Shown: positions 51,001-54,000 of the stretch, one piece after another
Numbering within the stretch: the first letter of the stretch is position 1
Layout of the letters: each line of letters begins with the position of its first letter
From: a virus
Lineage: Duplodnaviria > Caudoviricetes
DNA length: 64,000 nucleotides
Reading direction: 5' to 3' (one strand)
Virus record (IMG/VR): IMGVR_UViG_3300026484_000545
Location: 1-64,000 of that record
Made by a program: the position numbers

Positions 51001-54000
51001 ACTGTAATTAACTTTTGATTCAAGAGATCCAAGTATGTATATCTACATACATTTGTGATAAATTTATGCCAATACTGAGTTTCTTTTGTATAGCGTTTAA
51101 ATAGGTTATTTGGATGCTCATACAATTCATCTAAAACATTTTTGATTCCGGTTAATTTAACACGATTTTTCAACTGCTGCTTTACATTTGATGTCAATAA
51201 TCGTGGAATTAATTGTAATTTGGCAAAGCGTTTAAGAAAATCGCTGTAATAAAGTACTAAAATTGCACTTTCTTTTTTAGTAAACGGCAATGAAACAGTT
51301 TCACCAACCGTATAAGTTATTAATGGCGCTACAAATGTATCAAAAAACGGTTTGTTAAAGTTATATTGCTCGTAAAATACAGAGGTTTTCATACCATATG
51401 TCTTTTCTAAATACTGCATCATATACATCAAATATTTATCGAAAGCAACCTTTAGGCAATAGTCAATATTTGCCTTATAAAAATCATCAAGTTCTAAATA
51501 AGTTAGCGAAACTTGATATACGTCAGTGTATAGGTAATACAGTTGACGACTCAAGAAGTCAATTACAAAACCAATGGGATTATAACTTTTATGCATAATA
51601 GGAAGAATGTAAAAAAGAATGTTGTAGAAAAATTCAGAAACTACGTAATCTTCGTCTTTAAGCATTACTTCCGATAAAAATTTCCAGATGTTTTCTCTAT
51701 TTTTCTTAGAACCGTATACTCTTTGTTTTACGATCACAAAAAGTTTATCAAAAACTCCATGTTTTCGTAAGGGTTCTAGTAAAGTTTCTGTTATTTTAGT
51801 ATGCAATCCTGGTGAAAATTTTTTGGAAGTGTAAAAAATTAAACCATATAACTTCATCATCCAGGCATATTGAATCAATAAAAGACTATCTTCCTCATTT
51901 ATCTTAACTTTTGCACGAGTATTAGTACGAATTTTTAGTTTCACATTTGGTAAATAATAAGTTTCGAGATATTGCTTTAGGAAATTAAACCCTGCAAATA
52001 AAATGTCAGAGAAAGTAATTTCGTCAATCCAAGAGTTTAAATATAGGTAATATGAGTAGAGAAATTGCTTTGCAAAATCAGGAAACTTCTCGAAAAAATC
52101 ATCCAAATCGCTTAAAATATACGGACGAAATTTTCGAGTGATTTTTTGCTCTAATTGAACGGTTACATCTTGTAAAGTTTCGTAGGGATAATTTACTCCA
52201 TATTCATCGCATGCATACTCATAAATCGACTTACGTGTAGAATCAGTTACACCAACATGTAATCGATACCCTCTGATATTAAACGAAAACCCCAAAGTCT
52301 CATAAAACATAACGAAATACCTCCTTAATTTGCGTGATACAGTGCGAGTAAAAATATGAGGGGGCTTTTTATGCCCCCTCATATTTTGCTACAACTTGTT
52401 TAATCGTATCCTGAATTTCTTCTAGCGTATTTGAATCTACAATTCCATATATATTTACACTGATTCCGATGGGATTACGTACAATCTCAAATCGTTGAAT
52501 CAACTCAAAGTTGATGTGAGGAAACTGTTCTCGTAAGGTTTGTTGCAATTCCTTAATCAGTTCATCGGAATACAAATCGATATTGCAAACAGACTGATAT
52601 TCAAACGTACTCATTAATCCCTCACGTTTGATTGATTGTATGATTAATCTAGCAAGATAATCAAATATGCGCTACCTGTTTTCCTAAACTCGAAATGCAA
52701 AATCAGCAAATTCTTCGTAAATGTAAGATAATCGAATTTCTACATCTGGTGTCTTTCACTTTATGCGTTAAACGAAAAGCTTTTATGTAGCTGATCGATT
52801 GCAAAGCGAAAAAGAATCAGATTTGAGTACGAGGATATCCATCGAGTATTGCATCATACTTTGTGTTGTTCACTTTATGTGAATTTTCTGATTGCAACAA
52901 TTGATTTGATTACAAGATCGATTAACCATCGATTACTCACTAGTGTTTCTGCAATACGTGTTTTCTCTTTATGTGATTTTAAAAGAAAGCTAATTTGCAA
53001 TAAGGATAGTAAATTGCAACGATACTAGAAAGAGATATACTCACCACATTTTGTGTTTTGATAAGATGATTTGTTAATCTCATTGCTTTTTGAGTTTACA
53101 ATAGGTTAATCAAAATTTGAGAAATCAAAATCGGATATGTAATGACTCGTTATAGCGGATAACGTAGTCCTATCCGCTATATTTTCTATTTTTACTTAAG
53201 ATATTTCTATCTCAAATTTTGATTAGTTATATTCTTTATTACCTAATTGTCTATTTTCGATAGTTAGGTAATCTCTAGATATGAAATCAACAAAATCTCT
53301 TTTAATTCTCACATAAGAATCACAAGTGATATCAAACGATAAATCAACCAGGAATTTGCGAATATTTGCATTTATGCGAATATTTGCAAATTCCGATGAA
53401 CTATCGATGTTATTACTTATTCCCATAAGCATCATTAGTAAGCAGATAATCAACAATAGAACGTATGATTCTCTTGTTTGAGATATCTTTAGATATCTCA
53501 AATGAGAGAATCTTCTATTATTGCTTAATTTGCTAAAGGAATCGTAAGTTTGATAGATAAAGCTATAGAATAAGCTATTCTTATTTACGCAGATCACGTT
53601 TTCGCACTTGTAATCCAATTGCTTGCATTGGTTTTCACATCTGGTTGGGATTTGTGAGAACTCCAACATTTGCAAACACCTCCAATGATTTTTTGACGTC
53701 AGGCTGCACTCGTTTTTAAAAACGCAGGTGCAACGAGTATTATCTAGTGCAGCCCGGTCCGGTTCCTAAATATATTTAGCCGGATCGCGATCATAATATG
53801 TTATTCGGCACGTCATGTTAGACATCTAGGAAAACTCGTTGAATTTGTTGGTCTTGCAATCTGTTAACCTAAGGTTGTCTGAGTAACGTGAGGTTTTCCG
53901 TTAACCAGACGTTTCGATTTCGTGAAATCCAGCGAAAAACGTTGCAAAAATTGTGGCTTAAAACGCTTGACATTTCAGAGACGGCGTATAAATTTAAAAA

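Follow-up and report, generated by a model that had tools for sequence, protein, structure and literature searches.

Palindromes and local repeats in the only large intergenic gap of a jumbo phage contig: a possible control or origin-like region

The gap and its genomic setting

The window analysed here comprises positions 1 to 64,000 of the IMG/VR virus record IMGVR_UViG_3300026484_000545, and corresponds to the leading 64 kb of one 77,831-bp contig that lacks a terminal repeat. Our subject is a 1.07-kb stretch of it (52630-53700), situated in a gene-poor gap at the main strand switch of the contig, beside genes for UvsX, a Cas4-like nuclease, a ligase and PolB. An earlier note had read this stretch as one undescribed non-coding RNA (ncRNA) of about 1.1 kb with two domains. 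That reading is not borne out, in that half of the stretch folds no better than shuffled sequence and the other half shows nearly the same degree of folding on either strand. We tentatively propose that the stretch holds DNA-level sites for proteins, as part of a control or origin-like region, rather than a single RNA.

Leftward genes stop at 52614 and the next convincing gene, tnpA, begins at 54269, leaving an intergenic space of 1654 nt (52615-54268). All other spaces of at least 25 nt in the 77.8-kb contig measure at most 247 nt, save for one artefact of an open-ended open reading frame (ORF), and the gap is thus the only large one in a gene-dense genome, as the earlier note had claimed. 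Alternative genetic codes (table 4, TAG=Q) opened no convincing gene in it.

The G+C content (GC) of the contig is 31-32%. Matches to PHROGs include two sets of split multisubunit RNA polymerase β/β′ genes, a large terminase and a tape-measure protein, and Pfam and PHROGs together identify UDG-PolB, an ATP-dependent ligase, a UvsX-like recombinase and NrdD. By this gene content the phage is a jumbo phage of the phiKZ/AR9 type, and it is a deeply divergent one. Proteins of the contig are also found on public contigs of up to 170 kb. The stretch itself is near-identical in three DNA sequencing runs (X1, X2 and X3) from three studies, all labelled hydrothermal vent metagenome, and one of these runs may be where the present DNA came from; the differences listed over the gap (52615-54249) lie at three places in X2 (52813, 53360 and 53611) and at one in X1 and X3 (54185).

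Palindromes, spacer and folding on both strands

Folding was assessed against dinucleotide shuffles on both strands, with RNA and with DNA parameters, and the contig was scanned in 517 sliding windows of 300 nt with correction for GC. On the plus strand the three strongest outliers of the 517 were 53101-53400, 53251-53550 and 53401-53700 (-5.2, -5.2 and -3.2 standard deviations (SD)); on the minus strand the first two of these were again the top two (-4.3 and -4.9 SD), and the third ranked eighth (-2.5). Folded as RNA, 53101-53700 reached -173.1 kcal/mol (z score -10.1) on the plus strand and -164.1 kcal/mol (z -8.5) on the minus strand, and with DNA parameters the z scores were -9.1 and -8.3, respectively. 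Four long local palindromes, H1 to H4 (Table 1), give the whole of this signal, three of them (H2-H4) inside a doubtful minus-strand frame, ORF148. The real structure is limited to about 53105-53530 and is nearly strand-symmetric.

Each of H1-H4 folds better than 200 of 200 shuffles on either strand. The hairpins that the earlier note had placed in a 'domain B', corresponding to H2, H3 and the core of H4, are where it put them, and a helix drawn around the latter two (53322-53328/53605-53611) is also present, with 7 of 7 positions complementary. The end of the proposed RNA, 53595-53700, is not structured (z -0.2 and 0.0). The three palindromes H2-H4 are 35-46 bp each and about 117 nt apart. 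Internally, H3 consists of two copies of a near-palindromic 14-mer, TGCGAATATTTGCA, 18 nt apart, while H4 holds the 8-bp palindrome AGATATCT twice, 10 nt apart, and was flagged as terminator-like on the plus strand. A motif, TATCTCAAA/TTTGAGATA, is common to H1 and H4, and three of its four copies in the contig lie in this region. Searches of IMG/VR with a degenerate pattern for H3 and an exact pattern for H4 returned no match, and neither has another copy in the contig.

H1 (z -5.9 on the plus strand and -6.8 on the minus strand) has a right arm that starts at the ORF148 stop codon. Its inner hairpin carries the TTTTCTATTTTT tail on the plus strand, has no T run on its minus side, and resembles the canonical intrinsic terminators of the contig; a terminator consensus scan with a loop limit of 8 missed this hairpin (53151-53181), the loop of which is 9 nt. 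Upstream of it on the plus strand there is neither an ORF nor a Shine-Dalgarno sequence.

To the left, a 'domain A' had been proposed at 52630-53112. Its fold lies near that of shuffles (z -1.90 on the plus strand, with 2 of 100 shuffles as good, and -2.26 on the minus strand), its windows are ordinary in the GC-corrected scan (+0.4 to -1.05 SD), and its two internal arms gave z scores, plus and minus, of -0.7/-2.2 and -2.25/-1.4. The two helices said to close the domain do exist as complementary segments, but at chance level: 52641-52651/53102-53112 is complementary at 10 of 11 positions, and an 11-nt window with 10 matches at a distance of at least 100 nt occurred in 134 of 200 shuffles; 52686-52700/53083-53097 is complementary at 13 of 15, and a 16-nt window with 14 matches occurred in 10 of 200. 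The left part, 52615-53100, is an AT-rich spacer without structure beyond chance. The comparison with shuffles on both strands, which the earlier note had itself proposed as a check, therefore does not support a single RNA, since one half lies at shuffle level and the other is nearly symmetric between strands.

The spacer does contain three plus-strand copies of a 13-mer, TTC(A/T)CTTTATG(T/C)G, spaced 114 and 94 nt apart. At up to two mismatches these are the only sites in the 77.8-kb contig, all of them on the plus strand. The sequence between the repeats is not homologous, nor are the surrounding units homologous as wholes. A role of the 13-19-nt repeats as a general promoter was ruled out because they occur nowhere else in the contig.

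GC of the stretch is 0.27-0.34, at or below background, with 0.277 at 53101-53400. Islands of higher GC (0.38-0.42) are a group I intron at 10744-11069 and the neighbouring 53700-54150.

Table 1. Features of the gap, its flanks and recurrent motif sites, in window coordinates
Feature	Position	Strand	Description
Gene-poor gap	52615-54249		Main strand switch (ORF lists, edge of insertion sequence (IS))
Direct repeat copy 1	52755-52767	+	13-nt core TTCACTTTATGCG; 19-nt form 52749-52767
Direct repeat copy 2	52869-52881	+	Perfect dyad TTCAC-N5-GTGAA; 114 nt after copy 1
Direct repeat copy 3	52963-52975	+	94 nt after copy 2
H1	53107-53225		Perfect 16-bp inverted repeat 53107-53122/53210-53225 around inner hairpin
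Terminator-like hairpin in H1	53151-53193	+	11-bp stem 53151-53161/53171-53181, 9-nt loop, then TTTTCTATTTTT
H2 palindrome	53238-53272		14-bp arms, 7-nt spacer, 2 G.T on plus
H3 palindrome	53351-53394		21-bp arms, 2-nt spacer, 2 G.T on plus
H4 palindrome	53447-53528		Core 53467-53512, 22-bp arms, 2-nt spacer, flanking arms, 2 adjacent G.T on plus
ORF148, 148-codon open frame (coding status doubtful)	53669-53223	minus	GGAGG 53683-53679, 9-nt spacer, ATG; covers H2-H4
GTATAAAT core of recurrent promoter-like motif	53986-53993	+	Rightward; outside the stretch
Second rightward GTATAAAT core	54154-54161	+	Just left of the IS607 edge
CnGTATAAATAATTC motif sites	44541-44553, 38426-38438, 35399-35411, 27502-27514, 29862-29869	minus	
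502-aa gene adjoining the gap	50874-52382	minus	Without Pfam, PHROG or NCBIfam family
IS607-type element	54250-56603		MerR-helix-turn-helix/resolvase TnpA and long 564-aa TnpB (Pfam, PHROGs)

A possible control or origin-like region and its rivals

The proposal that the stretch consists of binding sites acting at the level of DNA is argued for by the character of its structure, made up of local palindromes that fold to a similar extent on either strand whether RNA or DNA parameters are used, and by the shuffle-like folding of 'domain A'. In H3 and H4 the symmetry runs to within 2 nt of the centre, and both are built from short palindromes that recur; this makeup looks like arrays of dimer-binding sites, and an RNA hairpin would gain nothing from complementarity in its loop. 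The proposal is further suggested by the motif shared between H1 and H4 and the 13-mer confined to the region, by a GC unlike that of the GC-rich group I intron, by the lack of any matching Rfam family, and by location, as the only large gap falls at a strand switch by replication genes and at the cumulative G-C minimum. That minimum, at 52.8 kb of the contig, is shallow and confounded with gene direction, and depth along the contig is flat by construction. With regard to what might mark an origin, the stretch has three local repeats, palindromes built of repeat units, an AT-rich block (GC 0.277), and UvsX, ligase and PolB genes as neighbours.

Under this proposal, the 1.07-kb stretch would be the left two thirds of a composite control region from which leftward replication and transcription genes and rightward genes diverge. 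The repeats and palindromes would act as double-stranded, possibly cruciform-forming, sites for DNA-binding proteins, and the whole might be an assembly point of replication-origin-like or transcription-control type. The terminator-like hairpin in H1 would then end a short non-coding plus-strand transcript begun in the spacer. Protein binding and any origin function are inferred. The earlier note had offered a folded single-stranded DNA origin or packaging signal as its alternative; of this, the notion of a folded or palindromic DNA signal survives as the reading favoured here, although with double-stranded sites and with a possible role in replication or in transcription control.

Several points weigh against such a region. 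The G-C skew signal is shallow, and the skews of individual genes show no consistent change of sign from one side of the gap to the other. No initiator family was found among the flanking genes in Pfam, PHROGs or NCBIfam, and no site-specific binding protein was identified. A DnaA-box cluster is absent, with one match in the gap and window-wide 9-mer counts at chance. Classical iterons are spaced about 20 nt apart, whereas the repeats here are 94-117 nt apart, and H2-H4 differ from one another in sequence. These three palindromes also fall within an open frame, preceded by a good ribosome-binding site, whose length far exceeds chance. In six distant relatives with tight operons there is no large gap near the homologue of the 502-aa gene, so that the region is not conserved at that distance. 

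A further point concerns strand asymmetry. The earlier note had claimed that departures from perfect palindromy are mostly G.U pairs on the plus strand, and all six non-Watson-Crick core positions of H2-H4 are indeed G.T on that strand; a greater stability on the plus strand, however, is confined to H2 and H3 (-15.3 versus -9.0 and -27.1 versus -19.3 kcal/mol, plus versus minus), with H4 at -34.5 versus -34.3 and H1 at -33.9 versus -36.0. Six of six would have a one-sided probability of about 0.016-0.02 if the positions were independent, which they are not, two being adjacent in H4 and two in H3 mirroring the duplicated 14-mer. Over all predicted pairs in 53101-53700 there are 17 G.U on the plus strand versus 13 on the minus strand. 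One difference between runs bears on H3: in X2, 53360 G>A turns a G.T into an A-T, which fits selection for the palindrome itself and indicates no strand. The G.T bias on the plus strand is thus real but weak. Together with the 6-8 kcal/mol by which H2 and H3 are more stable on the plus strand, it points to some selection on a single strand, and to that extent away from sites in double-stranded DNA.

This asymmetry is a starting point for the view, which we consider unlikely, that the region encodes one or more smaller structured plus-strand ncRNAs: either a transcript of at most 570 nt running from 52615-53140 to the H1 terminator, or an RNA of about 430 nt carrying H1-H4, antisense to ORF148. 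In addition to the G.T positions and the stability of H2 and H3, it would account for the terminator-like hairpin with its T tail and no ORF or Shine-Dalgarno sequence upstream, for the terminator-like character of H4 on the plus strand, and for a total minimum free energy 9 kcal/mol lower on that strand; short units of promoter plus terminator that give small RNAs are documented in phiKZ-like phages (PMC11512511). However, the z scores are nearly equal on both strands, H1 favours the minus strand and H4 neither, the count of G.U over all pairs differs little (17 versus 13), and the six G.T positions are not independent. The part upstream of the terminator is unstructured, the recurrent promoter-like motif of the phage has no copy upstream on the plus strand, and the sequence is AT-rich, unlike the intron, and matches no Rfam family. 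Moreover, the same mismatches, read as A.C on the minus strand, could equally reflect selection that weakens hairpins in an ORF148 messenger RNA (mRNA). A distinctly improbable variant is an undescribed hairpin-array RNA, transcribed in the plus sense across H1-H4 (53105-53530), either alone or together with the spacer. It would be antisense to ORF148 and would depend for its function on long AU-rich stems, for example as processing substrates or decoys. If this were true, selection on such an RNA would have left the G.T bias as its trace.

Known RNA classes do not account for the stretch. In agreement with the earlier note, which had seen no transfer RNA, transfer-messenger RNA, RNase P or intron in it, the Rfam scan at gathering scores gave no match in the whole window and ARAGORN predicted no gene. 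At E values up to 1, Rfam gave seven sub-threshold hits in 52300-54400, six of them weak matches of the hairpins to microRNA-precursor models, at 22-28 bits where the thresholds are 80-110, and the seventh to sraA, at 30 bits where it is 56; we regard them as chance matches.

The earlier note had overlooked a minus-strand ORF of 148 or 150 codons over 53223-53675. Because this frame covers the structured half, and because GC is at or below background, the case for a single RNA is weakened further; coding or otherwise, ORF148 argues against a simple 'ORF-free RNA gene'. It could be a real, lineage-restricted gene, its small product having a cluster of Cys residues at the N terminus and a single hydrophobic helix; the palindromes would then act on the mRNA of the gene itself (in processing, stability or translation control) or be tolerated inserts, although we judge this, too, rather unlikely. 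The stop-free run is 180 codons, against an average of 83.7 in shuffles of the gap, of which 0 of 2000 reach 180 and 9 of 2000 reach 150. Its GGAGG-N9-ATG is the only pair of Shine-Dalgarno sequence and start inside the gap besides that of tnpA, and GGAGGT-type ribosome-binding sites also precede other genes of the contig. The same 148-aa product is found among public gene predictions, including ESM Atlas, and mismatches that are G.T on the plus strand would be A.C in the mRNA and would weaken its hairpins.

On the other hand, the codon score of ORF148 is 0.00, compared with 0.28 +/- 0.075 for genes; it equals that of the non-coding frames of the gap and falls below all 283 of 283 real 148-codon windows (minimum 0.067). 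At codon positions 1, 2 and 3 its GC is 0.28, 0.28 and 0.34, versus 0.43, 0.29 and 0.23 in genes. No homologue other than itself was found among 1.84 billion representatives, no family above threshold in Pfam, PHROG, NCBIfam or PADLOC, and in ESM Atlas only a sub-threshold lead at 0.80. Both of its single-nucleotide polymorphisms (SNPs) are radical and non-synonymous (Y20C and R104C), compared with 4 of 7 synonymous in the three flanking genes with listed SNPs, and no other gene of the contig has comparable hairpins. A single-sequence AlphaFold model was uninformative (predicted local distance difference test (pLDDT) 45.6). On these sequence statistics, the coding status of ORF148 appears doubtful.

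Finally, it is quite unlikely that the stretch has no present function and is decaying DNA, left for example by an old gene or by small palindromic mobile elements at a recombination-prone junction next to an active IS607: the multi-copy, variable IS607 element at the right edge in the same communities, the lack of conservation in distant relatives and the non-coding-like composition of ORF148 would fit, but chance does not preserve palindromes of 21-22 bp in which every departure is of the transition type (0 of 200 shuffles match each), the three are unrelated in sequence and, unlike a mobile family, have no other copies in the contig or IMG/VR, and the gap is near-identical across three runs of three studies, with one listed change that perfects a pair.

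Flanking features, relatives and known systems

To the right of the stretch lies an IS607-type element, the edges of which (about 54250 and 56603) are where similarity to other, diverged IS copies begins and ends. Diverged IS607 copies (about 80-90% alike) occur in the same metagenomes at 3-10 times the depth of the phage, and assemblies break at the element; the element is therefore multi-copy and active in the community.

Between the stretch and this element, 53700-54110 has a GC of 0.40-0.42 and fold z scores of -3.5 and -3.7 on the two strands. It contains an exact 18-mer, AGTGCAGCCCGGTCCGGT, at 53746 and 54002, with the core inverted at 53702, and each direct copy lies just downstream of a promoter-like site. 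The 18-mer had 24 scattered exact matches in the genome_contigs collection, about chance by our own estimate, and none in viral_contigs. A recurrent AT-rich motif, CnGTATAAATAATTC, is found 35-45 nt upstream of the start codons of at least four leftward genes; the core GTATAAAT with an ATAATTC extension stands at this distance from minus-strand genes at 44541, 38426, 35399 and 27502, and within the gap the core occurs only at 53986 and 54154. The motif is a candidate early-promoter consensus of this phage, and fits the AT-rich early-promoter motifs, detectable by bioinformatics, that are described for such phages (PMC7598289).

On the left, the 502-aa protein was combined with six distant homologues from metagenomes into a profile, which over residues 33-248 matches PDB 7s01_A (464 aa, E 2.9e-7). 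Judged by its length and by PMC9209446, this chain is gp226 of AR9, the sigma-like subunit that confers promoter specificity on the non-virion RNA polymerase. By this profile match, the neighbour of the gap looks like such a sigma-like subunit and not like a replication initiator. A lead to a Mga-type helix-turn-helix protein (ESM Atlas 0.86, sub-threshold) was dropped once the profile had matched gp226, and an AlphaFold model from 7 sequences (pLDDT 58.0) was too poor for use.

Further along the minus strand, a 301-aa protein (48057-48962) has a sub-threshold match to a Cas4-type nuclease (TIGR00372, 56 bits against a cut-off of 65) and is kept beside UvsX in many relatives, with 33 tblastn matches among 80 metagenome loci. 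The group I intron (RF00028, 10744-11069, minus strand) scores 50 bits, exactly the gathering score, at E 1.1e-11 over the full model length. It sits in a GC-rich 242-nt 'intergenic' space and was unlisted by the whole-window scan at gathering scores; given this position, ORFs 9920-10750 and 10993-11568 probably belong to a single gene as its two exons. Elsewhere, GC-rich perfect or near-perfect palindromes with GGAGG/CCTCC stand exactly at gene boundaries (52351-52387, 43085-43124, 40507-40536, 59954-59998 and others). These overlap ribosome-binding sites and have the look of terminators, in some cases bidirectional, which also serve as start regions.

Relatives were sought with the proteins around the gap and with the gap itself. 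Neither the 502-aa protein nor UvsX gave a relative in single-protein scans of viral_contigs, a word-indexed search with the 502-aa protein returned only itself, and blastn of the gap against the phages collection gave no match. The closest relative of UvsX is 45% identical, and a metagenome scan with a UvsX alignment gave 80 best loci at 33-40% identity. None of these 80 loci shows DNA similarity to the gap, the distance being too great for DNA alignment. An ORF-free gap of at least 500 nt is present in two of the 36 examined loci of at least 11 kb among the 80, and a distant homologue of the 502-aa gene occurs in 6 of the 80, in a tight operon where the upstream space is 58-96 nt or less.

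The nearest UvsX relative, on a 161-kb vent contig (L001), has an ORF-free island of about 0.9 kb at 17680-18614, which contains four direct copies of TTACTAATTTTATATAG(G)TAATATTAGATTAAC-type units. A 17-mer at up to three mismatches occurs four times in the island, a number that 0 of 100 shuffles reach, and the island may be an array of gene-less promoters. Like the gap, it is an ORF-free piece with local repeats in a related vent phage; it differs in its AT-rich, promoter-like direct repeats, the lack of long palindromes and of any similarity to the gap, and another position relative to UvsX.

Among known systems, the origin of phage lambda has repeated dyad-symmetric sites and an AT-rich stretch inside gene O. 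The gap resembles a lambda-type origin in its dyad repeats, regular spacing, low-GC block (0.277 at 53101-53400), location in or next to a replication module and partial overlap with an open frame. It differs in having sites that vary among themselves and lie 94-117 nt apart, and neither an initiator gene nor DnaA boxes were found. For jumbo phages of this kind, no mapped replication origin surfaced in the literature search, which does not prove that none exists. A second comparison is with phiKZ-like jumbo phages, for which PMC11512511 describes short promoter-terminator small-RNA units and terminators in 5′ untranslated regions. Here, likewise, a terminator-like hairpin closes an ORF-less stretch, and the phage encodes multisubunit RNA polymerases of its own; however, no upstream promoter was found, and the hairpins are much longer (21-22 bp) and AT-rich. 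GOLLD and ROOL, large ornate RNAs of phages and prophages (bioRxiv 10.1101/2024.12.08.627333), share with the gap a long gene-poor phage stretch with many predicted helices. The gap differs in that no Rfam family matches, half is unstructured, the rest consists of simple strand-symmetric palindromes that are not multibranched, the sequence is AT-rich, and an open frame overlaps it.

As proposed, a kilobase phage RNA comparable to GOLLD or ROOL would be a notable discovery, a claim for which the evidence is insufficient. Dense base pairing can be mimicked by a series of perfect local palindromes, and folds on both strands, local GC and open-frame statistics separate the two. The stretch still stands out as a cluster of DNA palindromes and local repeats that is well delimited and statistically extreme; the phage is unusual, but a feature of this kind is ordinary. 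If this cluster is a replication origin or a transcription-control hub, it would provide a rare handle on where replication starts, or how expression is switched, in such phages.

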